From an uncultured virus (IMG/VR IMGVR_UViG_3300028840_007457) (lineage: Duplodnaviria; Heunggongvirae; Uroviricota; Caudoviricetes): 64,000 nt of DNA. Position 1 is the first letter of the stretch. Every line of letters starts with the position of its first letter. Position numbers and translations under genes: made by a program. Shown here piece by piece: positions 2,787 to 59,608 of this stretch. The notes under the pieces were generated by a model. It was not told the origin of the DNA. It made no database searches and worked only from the letters and a program-made list of their open reading frames with translations. The DNA is taken from IMG/VR virus record IMGVR_UViG_3300028840_007457, one strand, 5' to 3'.

Positions 2787-3189
2787 CCTCTAAAACTTCC
2801 TCCTTATCTTCCGCTGGAGATTCTTCTACAGCTTGGGAAGGAGTAGCCCTTGTAATTAAACCGGCTAAATTAACTTTATCTACTGCTAAATCAATTCCAT
2901 ATTTTATACAGATTTTACTTAGCAGAGCATCATACTCTTTACTTGATTCGTCAATTTCTTTTTGCACAGATTGCATAGCATTTTGCGCTTCTAATTGTGC
3001 AATTCTAATTCTAGATTCTAGCTGATCTTTTTTAAGAGTAGCATTATCTTTTTTGTAAAAACATTTCTGAAGAAGTATCACATCTTCACTTCCTAACTGA
3101 TTACTATTAATGGATTTTGGGGGCAATTTTTGGGCTCCTTTTCTGAAATTTTTGAATTTTCTGGATTTTTTGATTTTGTTTCTTGCCAC
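2737..3189 (-). CDS. Coiled-coil hypothetical protein with acidic tail
   Basis: Coiled coil followed by KYGIDLAVDKVNLAG; GGAGG RBS. Confidence 0.6.
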   Translation of the reverse strand: MARNKIKKSRKFKNFRKGAQKLPPKSINSNQLGSEDVILLQKCFYKKDNATLKKDQLESRIRIAQLEAQNAMQSVQKEIDESSKEYDALLSKICIKYGIDLAVDKVNLAGLITRATPSQAVEESPAEDKEEVLEDEEYPEEEEEEESTND

Positions 3190-3216
3190 TATGGGCCTCC
3201 TTACTAACTCACCTTT

Positions 3217-6200
3217 TTATTTTTTCTTTCCTGATGAAAGAAGAGGTCTTCCTTTCGGCCAAAATGCATCTAGAGCTGTTGCTTCAACGGTTTCAGAACT
3301 ATAATTATAAGCTGGCTTTGCGTTATTGGAACTATTTCCCGGGAAAGCAGGTGTCCCTGTAGGACCACCACTTATTTGAAGCATTAGTCTGTTTTTATAA
3401 TCGTCTGCTACAGGGTTTACAAACAAACCCATAAATACATAAGCAATAGGTCCACCATGATCATACTGCATCCAAAGTCTATTACTATCATCGAATAAAG
3501 GTTCTCCTGGTATTGTAGGTAATTTAGGAGGAGGCTGAGCTGTTTGAGAAATCAAATCTCCTGTAGTTTTTAAAATGGTTGATAAATCAGCTCCACTACC
3601 AGGTACTAATATTGGCATTGCAAAACGAGCATTTTGCCCTACGTCACCCACAAAAACACCTCTACCAGCACCTTTGAGATCTTGTGCTCCTAACATAAGA
3701 CTTTCAAGAGTACTTACGTCTCCAGCACTCCAGTTAGGAGGATAACTTGTTCGTACCCCACGCAAATTAGTTTTACCACTAGCAACGCTTATGTTTGGGT
3801 GAGGATAACTGTTGGAAGTTTCCGCTTCGTCACTCTGAGAACTAATAGGTACTTTAATTACATCTACAAATTTATTTTGTATATTTTGATACCCCATATA
3901 CGAAGAGTCATCACTATAAAAAGTATCTAACATTGCCTGTGTTTCATAAATTTCAATTGCTGACCCTCCTATTGGATATTGAAATAATTCCATAATAGGA
4001 GTAACAAATCTATTACCTGCATTAGCTGCCAAACGTTTATAAAGGTAATCTATTTCTCCAGGACATGTTACCAAAGCCGTTAATACTGGAGAACCAGAAA
4101 TCAGTGGTAACTGTGATGACTCTTTTGGATACGCTGTAGTTAGTAATTGACCAGGACGAACTAAATAATCAGCTGGGGAATAAGGACTACCATATACAGC
4201 AATAAATGATCTATTTTCAGGAGTATAGTACTCTAACCCACATTGATGAAAACTAAGAGAATATGATCCATAAATATCATCTATCAATCCTTGTGTTACC
4301 GTTCGTTTTAAAATAGCATTTCGTCCTGGATTTATTTTAGAATACAATAAAAGTTTTTCTCCGCTAGGGCATGACCATTTAGAACCGTAAAATCTAACGT
4401 TTGGTCCTGAATAAACAAAATCACATTGATAATTATCTGGAGTAATAACTAAATTACAAGCAACTTCTCTTCCTTTACCTCGTACAGAAAATGGTGCAAC
4501 AGAATTTAAAAAATGGTCATACCTAACATCACCTATATTATTTCTAAGTGGATTACCGTATCCGGGAGCGTAACTAAGTGTACCAGATCCAGATCCAGCT
4601 CTTACAGGATCCAGATCAAAGTCAGCTACTCCACGGTGGTAATTACCACCAGCATTTAACAAATTAAAATGTGTTGGAAACGGGAGTCTTAATACTGCAG
4701 CAGCATTAAACATTTCATCTCCCAAGAATATATGATTTAATCCAAAGGTACCTTCACTACCATTAGATTTTACAATAGCTGTCCTATTATAAGCAGAGAA
4801 TCTTTCGACTCCCCCAATATTGGGTTTATCTGCGGTTAATTCTGTTAAGCGCTGATTATTAACAGGAAGACCAGTCCAACTTAGCACACCAGAGAAGTAC
4901 GAAGTAGCTCCACTTTGTGTTGCGTAAAAATCACTATTTTCTTCCACCACACCATGAAGCAGATTTTTTAATTTAGGTAATGAGGTGCCTATAATAGGAG
5001 ACTCCCCTCCTTCAGAACTCTGTCCTTGATAAGGAGTATAAGTATATTCGATCAAAATGTGATTAGCAGCACCTGCTGGAGGAGCACTATGTCTAGCTAC
5101 CAAAACAGTAGTATATTGACTTAACGGGGTAGTGTTGAAACTAATCAAATTACTATAACAACCACCTATCCCCGCTGCTATAACATCTAAATTCAAATCC
5201 CAAGGTGTACCAGGAATGTTAGATGCTCTAGTCCAGAATTGTGGCACTAGCCCACTTACTCTTCCATCAATTTCTGGTGGATACCAAATAGAACCTCCTA
5301 AATTATAAGCATAGTCATTTCCGGCTGGTGGTCCTCCAAAGTCAATACTTTGTTGATGCCAAGAAAATAAAGCTTGAATAGACTTACCACCCCTACCTAT
5401 TTCTACCCATTCGTCAACTGTTGTAGTTTCAAAGAAAATAGTTACTTCAAAGTCCCCTGTAAAAGGTGCAGCAAATGTTAAAGTTAGTTCATCCCAAACA
5501 TCTGTTATTTGAGCGGAAGACCACCCTCCCATAACATTTTCATAATCAAATCCTAAAATGGTGTGAGTACCACTTAAACCACTAGCAGCAGCTACTTCAG
5601 CATCTGTAAAACTAACATTAGCAGCCGCTACTAAAGTTTTTCTAATTGTAACAGCTAATGTACCTACATTCAAATCGGTAGGTGCACCAAGAGGATCTTT
5701 AGTAACACGATGAACAGTATCTGGAATTTCTGCTAAACCATAATTAGAATCATAATTATCCACATTGGTAAAGGTACGATCATAATGAACCCACCAAGAT
5801 AAAACAGCAGTACCTACATAGGCAGGGTCACTTAAATCTACGTATCCACGCATTTGTGTAGCTCTACCTAAACTATCTGTAGCAATTACCTCAAATGGTT
5901 CCCCCCACCAAGGACTTCCACATTGTACACCACTTCCTGGACCATAATAATTGTAATGCATATCCTGAGCAATATTAGTACTATCAATTAATTTACTATG
6001 GGCAGGGTTAATAGAATCAAAACTAAAAAGGTTACCATCTCTTGCAATTCTAGTAGTCCAACAAGGTGGTCCATAAAAATCCATAAATAAAGCAGATGCA
6101 CTATTTCCATTAATATACATTTGCGCTGGTAAATGTCTAATTAAAGATGCACCTGGAGGCGCTTTAATAATCAATTCACCTTCTGTAGGACTTAACTGTT

Positions 6201-40132: not shown

Positions 40133-40639
40133 TTACCTGATCCGGTTCCGCGTGTCAATAGGATGTCCATCTATGACATGTTTCTCAAAATAAGTTTCGT
40201 CACCCAATACCCGTTCCCACAGATCTGTCTTTAACCAAGCTTTGCTTTTGTCACTGTTGTAAACTCCTTCTAATTTAAAGCGGTAAGGAATAGTGCTTTT
40301 TCTTGTTCTTGACATTTTGAATGCTAAAATAGGATGCACAGGGCCAGGAAATAAAGGTCCCTCAGGAGCTTGTGTGCCTCCTATTTCCATATAGTAGCCG
40401 GGATGTCCTGCAAAATCTAACAGGTTTACTCCTCTGGTTACAGCATGAAAATGTGTTAAGTCAGCTCTTCTACTGCCAAAGAAATGTTGTATAACCCTTA
40501 AGCATTCCTTTTCTCCATCTAACCGGATGAACTCTACCCAAGGTTTTCTAAGAACCCCTCGTAATCGATCATCCGTAAACTTTTTGGCTTTCTTTTTAGA
40601 AGTGGTCAAACTATCTTCCTTTAGGCTTTTTCGTTCCAA
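40133..40639 (-). CDS. Hypothetical protein
   Basis: 168-aa ORF, overlapping upstream stop. Confidence 0.55.
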   Translation of the reverse strand: MERKSLKEDSLTTSKKKAKKFTDDRLRGVLRKPWVEFIRLDGEKECLRVIQHFFGSRRADLTHFHAVTRGVNLLDFAGHPGYYMEIGGTQAPEGPLFPGPVHPILAFKMSRTRKSTIPYRFKLEGVYNSDKSKAWLKTDLWERVLGDETYFEKHVIDGHPIDTRNRIR

Positions 40640-53774: not shown

Positions 53775-54038
53775 ATGGAAAAAGCAGCTAGATCTTGTCA
53801 TTGGGGACATTGGTGGATCGAATTTTGGAGAGGGGACATTCATGCTCTTCCAACTCTCAGTGACCCCCAGCCGAGAAAAGATTCCCAACTGGTTGCGAGA
53901 CTGCACTTTGGTGTCGGGCCTTGCGGACCTGTAGATGGTACGCTTGGGTCACCTACTCGTTCGAATTATCGCGAGTATTGCCATAACTGGACACTTAGTG
54001 GAGAGCTTCCTCAGGTATCTAATTTGGAAGTTATTTAA
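53775..54038 (+). CDS. Small hypothetical protein
   Basis: GAGGTG RBS. Confidence 0.55.
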   Translation: MEKAARSCHWGHWWIEFWRGDIHALPTLSDPQPRKDSQLVARLHFGVGPCGPVDGTLGSPTRSNYREYCHNWTLSGELPQVSNLEVI

Positions 54039-54043
54039 AAACG

Positions 54044-54232
54044 ATGTCAACCAAAACCGAGAAAAAAGAAAAAGTTGAGAAACCTTCTGGTCCTGGTTGG
54101 TGTAAAGTTTCTGGAAATCACTGGGAAAGAACTGTAGAAAAACCAGATTCTTCTTGTGGCTACTGTGGCTGCACCACGTTTGTGGAGTCAACCTACAGCT
54201 GGCCTTACTGCGCAGATTGTAAAGGCACTTGA
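54044..54232 (+). CDS. Small zinc-ribbon protein
   Basis: CGYC...CADC. Confidence 0.55.
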   Translation: MSTKTEKKEKVEKPSGPGWCKVSGNHWERTVEKPDSSCGYCGCTTFVESTYSWPYCADCKGT

Positions 54233-54233
54233 A

Positions 54234-54416
54234 ATGTCTTACATGGTTCTTTGTCGGGAAGATCGTAAACTGGATGGTACACCAGGCAGATTTGTTGTAG
54301 CAACCCAAAAACAATTTTCCTTACTAGAGGAAGCACAACACTACGTCGCTACCATCTCTTCTTCCAGAGAACCAAAGGTGGTGAAAATAACTTCTGAAAA
54401 GGAGCTAAAATCATGA
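54234..54416 (+). CDS. Small hypothetical protein
   Basis: ATG 1 nt after previous stop (MSYMVLCREDRK); ATGA overlap with next gene. Confidence 0.55.
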   Translation: MSYMVLCREDRKLDGTPGRFVVATQKQFSLLEEAQHYVATISSSREPKVVKITSEKELKS

Positions 54417-54823
54417 GCTACGAAGGCTACGAAATGTACTTGTGTGCCAACGGGCACCTGACCAGGGAAGATGCACTTGCTGGTTGTTACTTTGGAGAAG
54501 AGCCTACCATTTGCACAGTCTGCAAAGAACCCATGGTTTGGCGTTGCTGTGTGGACCAAACCAATGACGGTGGAGTGGCTCCTGTGTTGGTAGAGCACGA
54601 AGCAGAAAAGACCAAAACTTGTGAGTGTTGCGGTCACACACGAGTAACAGAAGAAGCCACTTTTTGCATTCCCTCCAACGCTGGACATCGGTTGAGGGAT
54701 GACCACGCTGACGAAATTCCAGCTGAAGTCCCCCTCGTGGAAGTCCAATTCAAAGACGTGGACAGTGGCGAGCTGTTTCCCACCGCTGACGAGGCGTGGA
54801 GAAACAAAGGCTACCACCGCTAG
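54413..54823 (+). CDS. Cys-rich hypothetical protein
   Basis: AAGGAG RBS; MSYEGY..LCANGH...CTVC...VDQTND...CECCGH. Confidence 0.65.
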   Translation: MSYEGYEMYLCANGHLTREDALAGCYFGEEPTICTVCKEPMVWRCCVDQTNDGGVAPVLVEHEAEKTKTCECCGHTRVTEEATFCIPSNAGHRLRDDHADEIPAEVPLVEVQFKDVDSGELFPTADEAWRNKGYHR

Positions 54824-54839
54824 CAGCTCCTCTTTTTTC

Positions 54840-54868
54840 TTGACAAAATTGTAGCACCGTGCAATAGT
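54840..54868 (+). promoter_or_regulatory. Possible sigma70-type promoter upstream of the cas12 operon
   Basis: TTGACA-17 nt-AATAGT with extended TG; flanked by inverted repeat AGCTCCTCT/AGAGGAGCT. Confidence 0.45.
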
Positions 54869-54900
54869 GAGGGAACTTTTCAGAGGAGCTATGCGTCTTT

Positions 54901-55291
54901 ATGTACTATAATGTCATTTATTTAGTAGTTGGGGAAACCGGTGAGCACGGTGATTTTCGTCATTGGATTGTAGCTGCTTTTACCGACAGAGAATCAGCTT
55001 ATTGTTGGCGCAGTTCTTGTCAAAAACATGCCGATGCTTTCTGCAAAAAAGATGGTCAGTATGATGAAGATTTTAGAGCTGAAAATGGTGATAAATTAGA
55101 GGAACGTGTAGAGGAACTAGCAATTAAACATCCTCTTAGGTGGTCTTAGATTGACAGCTATGTGGGAAATAAATCCATTTGACCCCCTTATGCGGGTAGA
55201 CTATACTGGAACTAATTATAAAATTGAAGAGGTTGTCTTTGATCCTTCCGATGAATCAAACACGTTTAATTTCTGTTTCAAACAAGTTTGA
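54901..55291 (+). pseudogene. Hypothetical phage gene apparently split by a +1 frameshift
   Basis: 54901..55149 (IYLVVGETGEHGDFRHWIVAAF) plus a +1-frame segment open from 55121 to 55291 (NPFDPLMRVDYTGTNYKIEEV). Confidence 0.4.
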
Positions 55292-55311
55292 GATTTTAGG
55301 AGTGACTTTCC

Positions 55312-57066
55312 ATGCGTGTTTACAAGTACGGCCTTCTTCGTCCTACCACCAATGCTGACCTGGTTCACGAGCAAATTAAAATAGGGCATAAGTATAGAAA
55401 TAAATTGATTGAGCTGGAGATCAAACGTAGGGATTTGATTCGAGCAGAGGTTGCAAAATCTTCTGTTGTGGAAGATGATTTTACCGATGCTAAACTCGCT
55501 GTTGAAAAGTTTAAGCATCTTGATAAGCTACTAAAACAAAAAAATGCACAACATAGAAGTAAAAGACACAATAATCCAGATCTAAAAAAAGACCACACCA
55601 AAGCCAGAAAAGAAAAAACAAAAGCCATTAAAAAACTAGAAGAGACTAGACGTAAAGTTCTTAAAAAGTGTAAAGAAACAATTAAAGTTTTTAATGATCA
55701 GTACATTGAAGAGGAGAAAAAAGTTAGAAGTGAATGTGCTCCTTTTTGGGGTACTTATCAAGTAATCGAAGATGCTATGAAAAGGTCTAGAAAATCTCTC
55801 CCTCTTTGGGATGGATTAGAATCAAATAATCCTAAATTCAGACGATTTAATGGCATTGGACGAGTGAGTATACAACTTCAAAAAGATGTCATTGATAAAA
55901 ATAATGGTATGAATGTTGATCTCGTTTTTGGTACAACAGATACCCGTCTTCAGGTGGCTCCTGTTCCAGAAGAAGCTTGGTACAGTCCTATTCGAAGTGT
56001 GAGGCGAAAAAAGTCTCGAACAGTTCTTAAAATGAGAATTGGGTCTGAGGGACGTGCCCCCATTTGGGCGGAGTGGCCTATGATCATGCACCGTCCTCTT
56101 CCTGACAACGGAAGAATTAAAAGGGTTACGGTCAACTTCCGTAAAATTGGACCACGGGAAGAATGGACAGCGGATTTCTTTATAAATGATAGTGCTACCC
56201 TTCATGAGCAATATGAAGTGTCAGGAGCTATTGGTTTGGACGTTGGGTGGCGTCTCATGGATGACGGTTCTCTTAGGGTAGCTTTCTGGGAGGATGATGA
56301 GGGAGAAAAAGGAGAGTTTCGCCTTTCTCCAACCCTCATGGGAGCATTTAAAAAAGCAGACGATCTACGGTCCATTAGAGACAAAAATAGGGATGAAATT
56401 AAAGAATTCTTGATTCAACATTTTAGTAAAAATCCCATGCCTAGTTGGATGTTGGATTTTGTAAAAGGAAAAGAAGACTCAAAACGACCTACCAATAAGC
56501 AAGCTTGTGTTTATCTTTCCAAGTGGAAATCAATTGCCAAACTAACGAAATTGGTTCAAACTTGGAAAGAAAAGGGTATTACTAAAAGACACCAAAAAGC
56601 TTATAACCGTTTTGAGGACTGGCGTTATCATGACTTTCATCTTTGGCAGTGGGAAACCAGTCAGAGGAAAAAAGCCGAACGTAGGCGGAAAGATAATTAT
56701 CGTGTACTTGCCTCAAAACTCTCTAAACAGTACCACACACTGGTGTTGGAAAATTTTGATTTGCGAAAGGTTGCCCGAAAGAAGGCAGCAGATGATGATT
56801 CTTTAGATATTAAAGCAGCTAATCACAATAGATTTGTAGCCAATATTAGTGAGCTTCGATTGGTACTTAGAAATGCTTTTGAAAAGTGTGGAGAGATTGA
56901 ACTTGTAAAGGCTGTAAATACTACCAAAATTTGTTTCTGGTGTGGATTTATTAATAATTTCGACCAGGCTAAAAATCTGATTCACCAGTGCTACAGTTGT
57001 GGTGTGGTGTGGGATCAAGATGATAACGCCTCAACAAATATTAGACGAAGACGAAAACAGGGATAA
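55312..57066 (+). CDS. cas12m: Compact type V CRISPR effector, Cas12m-like (V-M/V-U1), 584 aa
   Basis: AGGAG RBS; FWGTY...FRRFNGIGRVSIQLQ, MRIGS, MHRPLP, GLDVGWR (D310), LVLENFD (E480), CFWC/CYSC zinc finger, DQDDNA (D570); CRISPR array 171 nt downstream. Subtype from recalled resemblance to Cas12m sequences. Confidence 0.8.
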   Translation: MRVYKYGLLRPTTNADLVHEQIKIGHKYRNKLIELEIKRRDLIRAEVAKSSVVEDDFTDAKLAVEKFKHLDKLLKQKNAQHRSKRHNNPDLKKDHTKARKEKTKAIKKLEETRRKVLKKCKETIKVFNDQYIEEEKKVRSECAPFWGTYQVIEDAMKRSRKSLPLWDGLESNNPKFRRFNGIGRVSIQLQKDVIDKNNGMNVDLVFGTTDTRLQVAPVPEEAWYSPIRSVRRKKSRTVLKMRIGSEGRAPIWAEWPMIMHRPLPDNGRIKRVTVNFRKIGPREEWTADFFINDSATLHEQYEVSGAIGLDVGWRLMDDGSLRVAFWEDDEGEKGEFRLSPTLMGAFKKADDLRSIRDKNRDEIKEFLIQHFSKNPMPSWMLDFVKGKEDSKRPTNKQACVYLSKWKSIAKLTKLVQTWKEKGITKRHQKAYNRFEDWRYHDFHLWQWETSQRKKAERRRKDNYRVLASKLSKQYHTLVLENFDLRKVARKKAADDDSLDIKAANHNRFVANISELRLVLRNAFEKCGEIELVKAVNTTKICFWCGFINNFDQAKNLIHQCYSCGVVWDQDDNASTNIRRRRKQG

Positions 57067-57237
57067 GGGTCTGCGAGAGCTTCGGTGGTGAGAAAAATCT
57101 AGGAGGCTCTCGCACCCGTAAAAACAGATAGTTACGTTCTTTGACAAAAGAAAAGTAGGCCATTTTGAGCTTGGTAAAAGAGGCTCTCGCAAAGCTCCAG
57201 GTAAAAATGCTAAATGTTTGGTGTTTTTACTGGAGCG
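57067..57237 (+). promoter_or_regulatory. CRISPR leader with inverted and direct repeat motifs
   Basis: TGCGAGAGC 57072-57080; GAGGCTCTCGCA at 57103-57114 and 57180-57191; hairpin 57194-57236 abutting repeat 1. Confidence 0.6.
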
Positions 57238-57713
57238 GTAACAACACCAGTCCAAAGGTTTATGATTTGGAACGCATATAATTAATATTACCAGGCAAGC
57301 AAAAATACGAGTGTAACAACACCAGTCCAAAGGTTTATGATTTGGAACACTTGTCTGCCAAGCCATGCCTTCGTCGCCTTCGGGTAACAACACCAGTCCA
57401 AAGGTTTATGATTTGGAACTGAAAAAAAGGCAGGAGGCGATAGCAAAGTGCCTTGCCAAGTAACAACACCAGTCCAAAGGTTTATGATTTGGAACATCTG
57501 AAATCGTCTCATGCAACCGTTCCTTCGTGAGTAACAACACCAGTCCAAAGGTTTATGATTTGGAACGTGCCTTAGCAAACTGGCCGGAAGTATCGTGTCG
57601 TTTGTGTAACAACACCAGTCCAAAGGTTTATGATTTGGAACCTTATCTTCGACAAGCCATGAGGTCAACCTAATTTTGTAACAACACCAGTCCAAAGGTT
57701 TATGATTTAAAAT
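57238..57713 (+). CRISPR. CRISPR array, 7 repeats / 6 spacers
   Basis: 36-nt repeat GTAACAACACCAGTCCAAAGGTTTATGATTTGGAAC at 57238, 57313, 57384, 57460, 57531, 57606 (identical) and 57678 (3' degenerate); spacers 39, 35, 40, 35, 39, 36 nt; stem TCCAAA/TTTGGA then AC. Confidence 0.98.
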
Positions 57714-57740
57714 ATATAGTCAAAGGAAGACTAGTAATAC

Positions 57741-57975
57741 GTACCAACAGTAGCTCAACACTTTTGAAGTTGAGACTGCAGGACATGTGGCAACAATCCT
57801 GTATAATAACAATAGCTCAACATTTTTAGAGTTGAGACATAGCAGTTGATCAACTTTGTAAAACAGGACAAGAAACCGACACTACTGCAGCAACAGAATC
57901 AGCTCAGAGATTTGCCTTTTCTGAGACCGAAGAGGTTCCTTGCTCATAGTAGCTTAGTGCTTTAATAACTAAGAC
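57741..57975 (+). CRISPR. Non-canonical array of 4 divergent, structure-conserved repeat-like units
   Basis: Units 57741-57776, 57803-57838, 57890-57927, 57940-57975, each N11-AG-6 bp stem-9 to 11 nt loop-stem-AC like the canonical repeat. Confidence 0.75.
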
Positions 57976-58009
57976 AACCGCGCGTTGCAGCTTTTAAAAA
58001 GGTGAAAAA

Positions 58010-58339
58010 TTGACTCGTTTACGTTGTACACTTTGTGAGTGGACCCAAGATCATTTTTGGGATCAAACTCTTCACAACCCCATTAAAAATCTTCTCTCGC
58101 TTGAAAAAGATCTATTAGAAAAAGATTTAGATGAAATTGTTAAAGGAGATAATGAAGGTAAACGTCCTCCTCTTCCCAGACGAACGCTAATTGCTATGCT
58201 CATGCAAAAAGCCTCTTCTAAGGTATTGTCTATGAAGTGGAGAACCTACGATGAATGGAAAAATGATCCTCATCCCTATTGTCCACAATGTGACGCTGAA
58301 TTAGAACTACACGGAACAGATTCTGAATTAGGAGACTAA
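58010..58339 (+). CDS. Hypothetical zinc-binding protein
   Basis: AGGTG RBS; CTLC...CPQC. Confidence 0.6.
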   Translation: MTRLRCTLCEWTQDHFWDQTLHNPIKNLLSLEKDLLEKDLDEIVKGDNEGKRPPLPRRTLIAMLMQKASSKVLSMKWRTYDEWKNDPHPYCPQCDAELELHGTDSELGD

Positions 58340-58340
58340 T

Positions 58341-59279
58341 TTGCTTCCCGTACCTACCGTCGAAAATATCGATAAAGACATACTTTCCGGTTTTAAAGCA
58401 ATCCGAGAGGGGGAAAGAGAGTTAGACTATCCAGTTTTTACTGAGGTGCGTGCCAGCTCCATGCCTATTTGCCCCCGAGCTATTCATATTTCTAGAAGAT
58501 TACCCAGGAAAAAAAGACCTTCTAAAACGGAAAAATTCGTCAGTGAAGCCTCTACCCTCATGGGTACAGCTCTTCATCTTGTTCTTCAAAAATGGTTCGC
58601 TATCATGTTCCCAGATTCCTTTTATGGAAATTGGGAATGTCTTTTTTGTAAAACTTTAATTAAACACAAAGCTGGAATTCAAATCTGCCCCTCGTGTGGG
58701 CGAGAAATGATCTACAAAGAATACTTTATTAAAAAGCAGAAAGGCATACCTTTTGACGGACACGTTGACGGTATTTTAAGATTCCCAGATGCTAATTATC
58801 TTTTGGACTACAAAGGTTCTTACCAGGAAAAAATGCGCTCTATTCGTATTGAGAGAAGACCAGTTAGGGGTCATTTTTATCAAACAAACAGTTACGCTTG
58901 TGCTATCAATACTGGTAAGGTACCTGTTGGAAAACTGGGTAAAATTAGTAAAATCATCATTATCTATATAGAAAGAGGGAAACCTCACCGCTTGTGGTAT
59001 CCCATGCAAGTAAGTGTAGATAAAAACGCCTATAAGCAGACAAAACAGTACATTCGTCTAGGAAATAGAAGTCTTAAAGATTTGGTGCTTCCACGTGGAT
59101 TTTGCATGGGACCAAAAGATGAAATTGGACGCTGGTGTATTTGGAATCCTATCTGTTTTTCTCCTACGTTAGAAGATAAATTAAGTGACCGTGTTTACCC
59201 TGAAAAGAAATTTAAACCCAAGCGTACTGAGCTTCTTCCTCTTTTGCTCGATTCAGAGAATATGAAAAATCAGAGCTAA
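58341..59279 (+). CDS. Cas4-like PD-(D/E)XK exonuclease with Fe-S-type Cys motif and Zn-ribbon insert
   Basis: RASSMPICPR, GTALH, GHVDG, LLDYKG, QTNSY, C-terminal C...C...C; insert CLFC...CPSC. Confidence 0.8.
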   Translation: MLPVPTVENIDKDILSGFKAIREGERELDYPVFTEVRASSMPICPRAIHISRRLPRKKRPSKTEKFVSEASTLMGTALHLVLQKWFAIMFPDSFYGNWECLFCKTLIKHKAGIQICPSCGREMIYKEYFIKKQKGIPFDGHVDGILRFPDANYLLDYKGSYQEKMRSIRIERRPVRGHFYQTNSYACAINTGKVPVGKLGKISKIIIIYIERGKPHRLWYPMQVSVDKNAYKQTKQYIRLGNRSLKDLVLPRGFCMGPKDEIGRWCIWNPICFSPTLEDKLSDRVYPEKKFKPKRTELLPLLLDSENMKNQS

Positions 59280-59293
59280 GAGGTAATGTCCAC

Positions 59294-59608
59294 ATGTCTA
59301 ATCTGTCTCCACCATCTGTTTTGGAGGAAAATCTTTTAGAAAATCTTAGAAATTTGGATAGAATTGGGGATTTGGATCCAACCATTTTGGTCCAGCTTCT
59401 TTTTTCTTTTTTGGCAGAAGAAATTGGTGACTTAGAAGTCAATCAAACTAGACTTGGAGATTTGTATATTTTGAATTTTGTAGTGGGAGAAAATAATAAG
59501 GCTAAAATTATTGGTAAAAAGGGTCACATACTGAAAGCTGTGTGCAGTATTTGTAAAGCTTATTTTAAGACCCGAGGAAAAGATGTAGTTATTAATGTTA
59601 AAGATTAA
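59294..59608 (+). CDS. KhpA-like single KH-domain RNA-binding protein
   Basis: V...NKAKIIGKKGHILKAVCSI (GxxG loop); KhpA-like size. Confidence 0.7.
   Translation: MSNLSPPSVLEENLLENLRNLDRIGDLDPTILVQLLFSFLAEEIGDLEVNQTRLGDLYILNFVVGENNKAKIIGKKGHILKAVCSICKAYFKTRGKDVVINVKD

Follow-up and report, generated by a model that had tools for sequence, protein, structure and literature searches.

Behind the regular part of its CRISPR array, a phage that encodes a Cas12m effector carries four repeat-like units that have diverged from the canonical repeat and from each other, while both helices of the predicted crRNA scaffold are intact in each. The pairing evidence supports a description of these units as crRNA-scaffold-like elements that have been kept by compensatory base changes. 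Here, we analysed a 64,000-nt stretch of an uncultured virus (IMG/VR IMGVR_UViG_3300028840_007457), hereafter the window, and compared it with 136 Cas12m loci (80 metagenomic, 7 genomic and 49 viral). Mixed repeats of this kind are a common trait of Cas12m loci and are not peculiar to this phage. The reading that we favour, with confidence about evenly balanced, is that the units are old, compacted and still-working crRNA modules, which would form the diverged tail of the phage's adaptation-less V-M array.

The window has the look of a large phage, with a baseplate wedge, a connector, a DnaB-like helicase, a primase, a ribonucleotide reductase and a sigma factor, and database records place its Cas12m protein on a contig of up to 298 kb. 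The effector ORF [55312-57066] matches the PDB entry 23vw, 'DNA-binding protein Cas12m', with an E-value of 2.2e-74, which bears out the initial annotation of a Cas12m-like protein. Matches to the same family include the Cas12m2 structures 8hio and 8hhl (E 1.3e-21). The entry 8pm4, a 614-aa chain deposited as 'Transposase', is matched as well, together with Cas12m2, at E 1e-21 to 1e-25, and the TNB domain PF07282 of Pfam at E 2e-8. Residues H260 and R261 are invariant among 36 homologues and, in our own reading, would correspond to the scaffold-reading His269 and Arg270 of Cas12m2. The gene lies on the same strand as the units, 675 nt upstream of the first of them. No second cas12m paralogue was found in the window, and none of its 61 scanned ORFs has a Pfam match to Cas1, Cas2 or Cas4.

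By sequence reading and repeat finding, six intact repeats and one degenerate repeat of 36 nt were located at 57238-57713. The arrangement of the locus, with the covariance-model scores described below, is as follows.

55312-57066, + strand: cas12m, 584 aa; the units resemble the RNA handle of this effector (PDB and Pfam matches)
57067-57237, + strand: array leader, in which part of a former coding stretch for a C-terminal tail appears to persist in another frame
57238-57641, + strand: six identical repeats of 36 nt and the five intervening spacers (repeat finding, motif scan); second helix ACC/GGT
57642-57677, + strand: sixth spacer; all spacers of the regular part are 35-40 nt
57678-57713, + strand: repeat 7, degenerate at its 3' end, 33/36 identical, 7/9 helix pairs, 27.2 bits
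57714-57740, + strand: 27-nt segment behind repeat 7 (sequence reading)
57741-57776, + strand: unit U1, stem CTCAAC/GTTGAG, second helix AGT/ACT, 44.2 bits
57777-57802, + strand: guide-like 26-nt segment behind U1 (sequence reading)
57803-57838, + strand: unit U2, stem as in U1, second helix AAT/ATT, 45.7 bits
57839-57889, + strand: 51-nt segment behind U2, containing a 12-nt palindrome
57890-57927, + strand: unit U3, stem CTCAGA/TCTGAG, second helix ATC/GAT, 9/9 pairs, 18.6 bits
57928-57939, + strand: 12-nt gap behind U3
57940-57975, + strand: unit U4, stem CTTAGT/ACTAAG, second helix AGT/GCT (one G-U), 38.4 bits
57976-58009, + strand: segment behind U4, running into the ribosome-binding site of the next gene
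58010-58339, + strand: 109-aa ORF without a family match (ORF list, Pfam)
58341-59279, + strand: PD-(D/E)XK nuclease-like ORF

The four units had been described in the initial annotation together with irregular gaps of 27, 26, 51 and 12 nt; the gap lengths are correct, and every unit is present letter for letter at exactly the coordinates given there. U3 is 38 nt long and has an 11-nt loop, and the end of U4 is 34 nt from the start codon of the next same-strand ORF. No ORF of at least 40 aa overlaps 57696-58009 on either strand. Over a core of 29 positions, the units are identical to the canonical repeat at 13-17 positions and to each other at 17-25. Near-identity of direct repeats and similar spacer length, two traits of a canonical CRISPR array, are both absent from U1-U4, the gaps of which contrast with the 35-40 nt of the regular part. 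As had been predicted for identity-based finders, repeat finding did not recover the set, recognizing only U1 and U2, as a pair. What had been proposed as a 'hidden second array' makes better sense as the old, diverged end of the regular one. In repeat 7, three of the 36 positions depart from the sequence shared by the other six repeats, each of them within the last 5 nt, and the final base is T, not C. The loss of pairing ascribed to it was confirmed, with 7/9 helix pairs left as compared with 9/9 in the canonical repeat and in each of U1-U4. An ordinary degenerate terminal repeat is found at the trailer end and has lost its pairing, and repeat 7 is exactly such a repeat; in contrast, U1-U4 keep all nine pairs despite 11-16 differences in the 29 core positions. 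Among the sequencing runs that contain this stretch, two are DNA runs and none is recorded as RNA. Over 57679-59300, the contigs of the two DNA runs have the same sequence as the window, without variants, and they end inside the regular array; their sizes are the same in both runs, which are possibly one data set filed twice.

The units stand out clearly from chance. Both strands of the 64-kb window were scanned for AG followed by a perfect 6-bp stem with a loop of 7-12 nt and then AC. The + strand gave 10 matches, which are the six canonical repeats and exactly U1-U4, and the - strand gave 0, as compared with a mean of 0.44 and a maximum of 3 per strand in 200 shuffles. The initial annotation had also suggested building a covariance model. 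Ours was trained on nine units, namely the canonical repeat, U1, U2 and U4 of the window and five units of L002, the closest relative for which DNA was compared (56% identical Cas12m); U3 was left out. When run unfiltered over the whole window, this model returned only the seven repeats and the four units. The untrained U3 was the best match outside the training set, with 18.6 bits (E 0.085), and the next match in the window reached 11.7 bits (E 2.5). An Rfam search of 54000-59000 gave no match at threshold, and the minimum free energy fold of 57678-58012 has a z-score of -1.2, an uninformative value. The self-complementary segments pointed out earlier in the gaps are indeed present. Self-complementary stems of at least 5 bp occur in 26-28% of the inter-unit gaps of Cas12m loci, which is close to the shuffled expectation, and they are therefore not evidence of anything.

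The fold of the units can be compared with the known scaffold of Cas12m2. In the available text of the structural report, the Cas12m2 crRNA scaffold begins with 7 disordered nt and contains a 6-bp 'pseudoknot' helix on which a further stem is stacked; a flipped-out A is followed by a G that forms a pair with A(-2), the C(-1) at the end is recognized by its base, and the helices are contacted through the backbone only (Omura 2023, PMC10442227). V-M repeats are also drawn with two stems in the accessible part of Bigelyte 2024 (PMC11013384). By this comparison, the 6-bp stem of the initial annotation appears to be the pseudoknot helix, and its AG and AC appear to be the base-read nucleotides, an equivalence of positions that we infer across a loop that is 1 nt longer here. 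The AG before the stem and the AC after it are present in 4/4 units, as had been claimed, and they match the A, the G...A pair and the terminal C of Cas12m2. The 6-bp helix is perfect in 4/4 units, and 6/6 of its pairs change on both sides across the nine units of the window and L002. There is also a second helix of 3 bp, absent from the earlier description, formed between the 3 nt that precede AG and the first 3 nt of the loop; it is complete in 4/4 units, with one G-U pair in U4.

In a gap-free alignment of the nine units, 81/81 cells pair and 8/9 pairs change on both sides, and 0/500 shuffles reach the observed pairing and covariation, which agrees with the compensatory substitution claimed for the stem. 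As controls, the pairing partner was shifted by 1-3 columns, and only 19-44% of the cells then pair. Since the 6-bp stem was partly the criterion by which the units were selected, its pairing count is circular for the units of the window. The second helix was not used to pick units and is therefore an independent test; taken alone, it pairs in 27/27 cells, and 2/3 of its pairs change on both sides in the nine units. For diverged pairs of units, if as many substitutions as observed were placed at random, the probability that all nine pairs survive would be only 1e-4 to 8e-4. U1 and U2 differ at 4/29 core positions, of which two form one compensatory pair, and no helix is broken, which argues for structural selection after their duplication.

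The window Cas12m has 125 homologues at E 1e-10 or better. The closest is P0002, with 65% identity, on a 3.4-kb contig. A scan of viral contigs with the single protein gave no relative, and an exact scan of viral contigs for the canonical repeat gave 0 matches. In L002, the whole 'array' consists of five units of three stem types with gaps of 12-33 nt, located right after its cas12m. L002 and the window have no common gene except cas12m, and the gene and the units therefore travel together; similarity between the two leaders is weak. The cores of U1, U2 and U4 are identical to L002 units at 20-21/29 positions, which is more than their 13-17/29 to the canonical repeat of their own array, and the tail therefore looks like an older, lineage-typical repeat type.

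To cover the family, a two-helix descriptor was applied to the 136 loci, giving 684 matches on the cas12m strand and 27 on the opposite strand; both helices and AC are required by this descriptor, which cannot itself prove pairing. After removal of identical loci, and with units kept only if they lie at most 150 nt from another, 555 units remain, in 67 non-redundant loci that have two or more clustered units each, and the opposite strand gave 0 clustered matches in the same analysis. At least two stem types occur in 41 of these 67 loci. In 36/67, a pair has changed on both sides within one locus. A uniform array followed by different units, as in the window, is found in several loci, for example L046, L006 and L059. 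Among 354 distinct unit sequences of other loci, the best core match to the window units is 23/29.

Other arrangements also occur in the family. In L040 [2853-4437], a unit recurs every 46-49 nt or so; the 29 units have 11 stem versions among them, with a conserved core of about 29 nt and a variable part of about 17-21 nt, and this whole array is compact and mixed. In L005 [3825-3932] and L008 [1668-1775], three units with three different stems follow each other head to tail with zero gap and a 36-nt period. In L003 [3419-3454] and L005 [1822-1857], a unit with the stem TTTGCG/CGCAAA lies at most 30 nt upstream of the cas12m start, and its 'guide' runs into the ribosome-binding site. Given these gapless and pre-cas12m units, some scaffolds of the family would act, if at all, free of guides.

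The gaps between units depend on whether the neighbours are alike. Between identical neighbouring units, 209/244 gaps measure 33-41 nt. Between different neighbouring units, the gaps spread widely and have a second mode at 10-14 nt (36/220). Thirteen loci, the window and L002 among them, have gaps of 11-13 nt; two of these loci are homologous copies, and about 20 of the gaps come from L040. If the 7 nt at the 5' end of the following repeat, which are dispensable, are added to such a gap, the sum is 18-20 nt, just above the 17 bp of the Cas12m2 heteroduplex as given in the available text (PMC10442227). The 12-nt gap between U3 and U4 plus 7 nt of U4 would make a potential guide of 19 nt. In our own reading, short gaps may be spacers shrunk to a functional floor, and this would speak for guides that are still needed. 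GC content is 47% in the inter-unit segments and 46% in the canonical spacers, as compared with 38% in the phage, and this spacer-like composition is mildly suggestive of guides. In 10 homologous modules from 3 locus pairs, differences are about three times denser beyond guide position 19 than in the first 17-19 nt, a count too small to be significant and drawn from pairs that are very similar and rearranged. In one 12-nt gap (L065 [5204-5215] as compared with L066 [3900-3911]), three adjacent positions, 4 to 6, differ, and the units on either side are identical at all 58 core positions compared.

From these features, the following course of events can be proposed for working crRNA modules. 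Array and units would be transcribed together from the leader, a proposal consistent with the finding of no terminator-like site on the + strand from 57067 to 58010. Each unit would fold as the two-helix scaffold, be bound by the phage's own Cas12m and be cut upstream of the scaffold. The products would be crRNAs with guides taken from the following 19-58 nt, of which about 17 nt are needed for DNA binding; crRNAs processed by Cas12m from a V-M scaffold are expected to measure 50-60 nt. Cas12m is a binding-only effector, and the guides would therefore silence their targets and not cut them. As V-M loci have no adaptation genes, old modules would not be refreshed by repeat duplication, and their repeats would therefore diverge. 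As the repeats drift, selection for Cas12m binding would keep both helices by compensatory changes, and deletions would shrink the spacers to the functional minimum. Transcription of the units, their binding and processing by Cas12m and a present-day guide function are all predictions from the sequence.

Guide targets were sought for these segments, and the search for matches behind each AC that had been called for gave no target in the window, in phage and plasmid collections or in viral contigs. In the window, the best guide match is 15/20, which is chance level; phage and plasmid collections gave guide matches only at E of 3 or above, and four exact scans of viral contigs with 19-20 nt guides gave 0 matches. 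Seeds of at least 9 nt are few in the window and none is at a promoter. A 10-nt seed at the start of the U1 guide matches 40403-40412 on the - strand, next to a TTT flank, in the middle of the ORF [40133-40639] (chance expectation about 0.04-0.08). When the unit clusters of the window and L002 are aligned, the units align and the inter-unit segments are not conserved, and this comparison gives no support to the 'fixed' character proposed initially. The missing targets and the unconserved guides both count against the favoured reading, as do the gapless units of L005 and L008, which cannot carry guides.

We weighed other readings of the units against working modules. They could have stopped working recently without yet decaying. 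Under such a history, which we consider unlikely, the units would have diverged in a working array of an L002-like ancestor and would be a retired relic now. The closeness of U1, U2 and U4 to L002 units fits it, as does the degenerate repeat 7 that separates the units from the active-looking part of the array, and it would account for the empty target searches and for guides that share nothing with L002. It is opposed by the 36/36 intact helix pairs of the four units, next to a repeat 7 that has lost 2/9, by the compensatory change between U1 and U2, which postdates their duplication, and by the U3-U4 gap, which falls on the recurrent 11-13 nt mode that neutral decay does not predict. Moreover, phage genomes tend to purge unused DNA. 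Somewhat more doubtful still is the idea that the units are guide-independent scaffolds, serving as sites where Cas12m binds or cuts the RNA of the operon; they might sever the array part of the transcript from the genes behind it, serve to tag or cover the next mRNA at its 5' end, or sequester Cas12m and so tune its free level. The short distance from U4 to the next start codon, with no + strand terminator-like site between, and the gapless and pre-cas12m units of other loci suit this idea. Yet the covariance model finds no further unit elsewhere in the 64-kb window, about 107 nt separate the last L002 unit from the next ORF, and between the two lies, in our own reading, a sigma-70-like promoter (TTGACA, 17 nt, TATAAT). 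The 11-13 nt gap mode is also better explained by a minimum guide length.

Two further readings start from known non-array RNAs. Regulatory mini-arrays beside the effector gene have been described for types I-B, I-E, I-F and V-A (Shmakov 2023, PMC10120712; bioRxiv 10.1101/2023.03.10.532045). In the available text of these sources, such CreR/CreA/crlRNA elements are, like our units, repeat-like, effector-adjacent and outside the regular array, with shortened spacers and overlooked by identity-based finders; they consist of one conserved and one degraded repeat, and their spacer partly matches a nearby promoter with a PAM. Short regulatory guides akin to CreA had been put forward for the units. 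A regulator of this type, partly complementary to a promoter, whether that of cas12m or that of some other gene of phage or host, and repressing it together with Cas12m, is, in our view, improbable. Its form fits, as repeat-like units with short spacers lie beside an effector gene, and the 10-nt U1-guide seed with its TTT flank could be counted for it. However, the promoter, leader and downstream-start regions [54700-55340], [57040-57240] and [57976-58060] contain no seed of at least 9 nt and no 12-of-17 match. In contrast to CreR/CreA, there are four units in a row in the window, all fully folded; their different guides exceed the need of an autoregulator, and a binding-only Cas12m needs no partial matches to avoid self-cleavage. 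We give least credence to decoys of the Racr type, for which the units would mimic repeats of host or rival Cas12m systems and tie up their effectors. Racrs are, as far as the accessible text goes, phage-encoded mimics that copy host repeats, keep the effector-binding fold and need no guide (PMC10651486), and several scaffold versions together could match several foreign effectors. In the window, the likeness is to the phage's own system, and the units cluster with its array at guide-like spacing. Lying in line with that array, they would equally bind its own Cas12m; none of the 354 unit sequences from other loci exceeds 23/29 against their cores, and decoys do not require guide-sized gaps.

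Returning to working crRNA modules, a broader extension of that reading is possible and stays tentative. V-M arrays on phages and plasmids may be, instead of immune memories with steady turnover, long-lived, separately evolving guide-RNA genes with drifting repeats that compensatory changes repair and with spacers trimmed to about 17-19 nt, in which the tail units act as hard-wired silencers. If this is true, non-identical repeats would also protect the set from recombinational loss, and the tail units would silence particular host or rival genes during infection. In CRISPR-associated transposons (I-F3, V-K), atypical diverged repeats set fixed homing guides apart from the regular array. The window differs from these in that none of its 61 ORFs has a transposase-family Pfam match and no guide is conserved with L002.

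The closest described systems are the V-M arrays of MmCas12m2 and GoCas12m. In the available text of the two reports (PMC10442227, PMC11013384), these have an effector of the same family, a 36-nt two-helix repeat with the G...A pair and terminal AC, and an array directly downstream of the gene, with no tracrRNA and no adaptation genes nearby, all as in the window. They are presented there with uniform repeats, and repeat conservation between orthologous V-M systems is said to be high (Bigelyte 2024, PMC11013384); the window, in contrast, has four stem versions, five scaffold sequences and irregular or very short gaps. A full-text literature search gave no description of mixed, co-varying V-M repeats in the literature outside Wu et al. 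2022 (Mol Cell), reportedly the first Cas12m paper. Mini-arrays and solitary repeats are already well described, and what seems new here is that at least four repeats stay folded while diverging, and that this extends across the family. It would show a CRISPR system without adaptation genes evolving by keeping and polishing its guide modules, not by replacing them. The units would also be natural support for the view that Cas12m reads the shape of the handle and a few bases, which could be useful in the design of non-repetitive multi-guide arrays for Cas12m silencing and base-editing tools. V-M guide repertoires are under-counted because standard repeat finders miss such units; in the window, the undercount amounts to 4/10 intact units. 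A first Cas12m in a phage is claimed, according to its available text, only in a 2026 preprint.

Several minor observations concern the neighbourhood of the array. Just past the cas12m stop codon, at 57084-57131, the DNA reads, in another frame, GGEKNLGGSRTRKNR followed by a stop. This resembles the extra C-terminal tail of a 56% identical relative, P0003 (...NGEKRSGGDTCKRTNRKKTKE), and P0002 ends at the same point as the window protein; it therefore seems that this lineage lost the tail by truncation and that a remnant of it persists in the array leader. By eye only, two copies of GAGGCTCTCGCA can be seen in the leader segment [57067-57200], at about 57102 and 57179, and so can a long inverted repeat with imperfections, GGGT(CT)GCGAGAGC ... 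GCTCTCGCACCC, directly behind the stop codon. A promoter-like site between U1 and U2 (57780-57807; AGGACA, 16 nt, TATAAT; 10/12) is probably due to chance, since a start there would cut into the U2 scaffold. The palindrome behind U2, AGTTGATCAACT at 57844-57855, is perfect over 12 nt and has a GATC core. Downstream, the PD-(D/E)XK ORF has no NCBIfam match at E of 0.01 or below; it matches PHROG 1706, 'CRISPR/Cas system associated' (E 3e-20), with no Cas4 model, and the second downstream same-strand ORF in 58341-59608 is a small KH-domain (RNA-binding) ORF. Elsewhere in the family, one 153-kb viral contig carries two separate cas12m loci (L089 and L091), about 49 kb apart.
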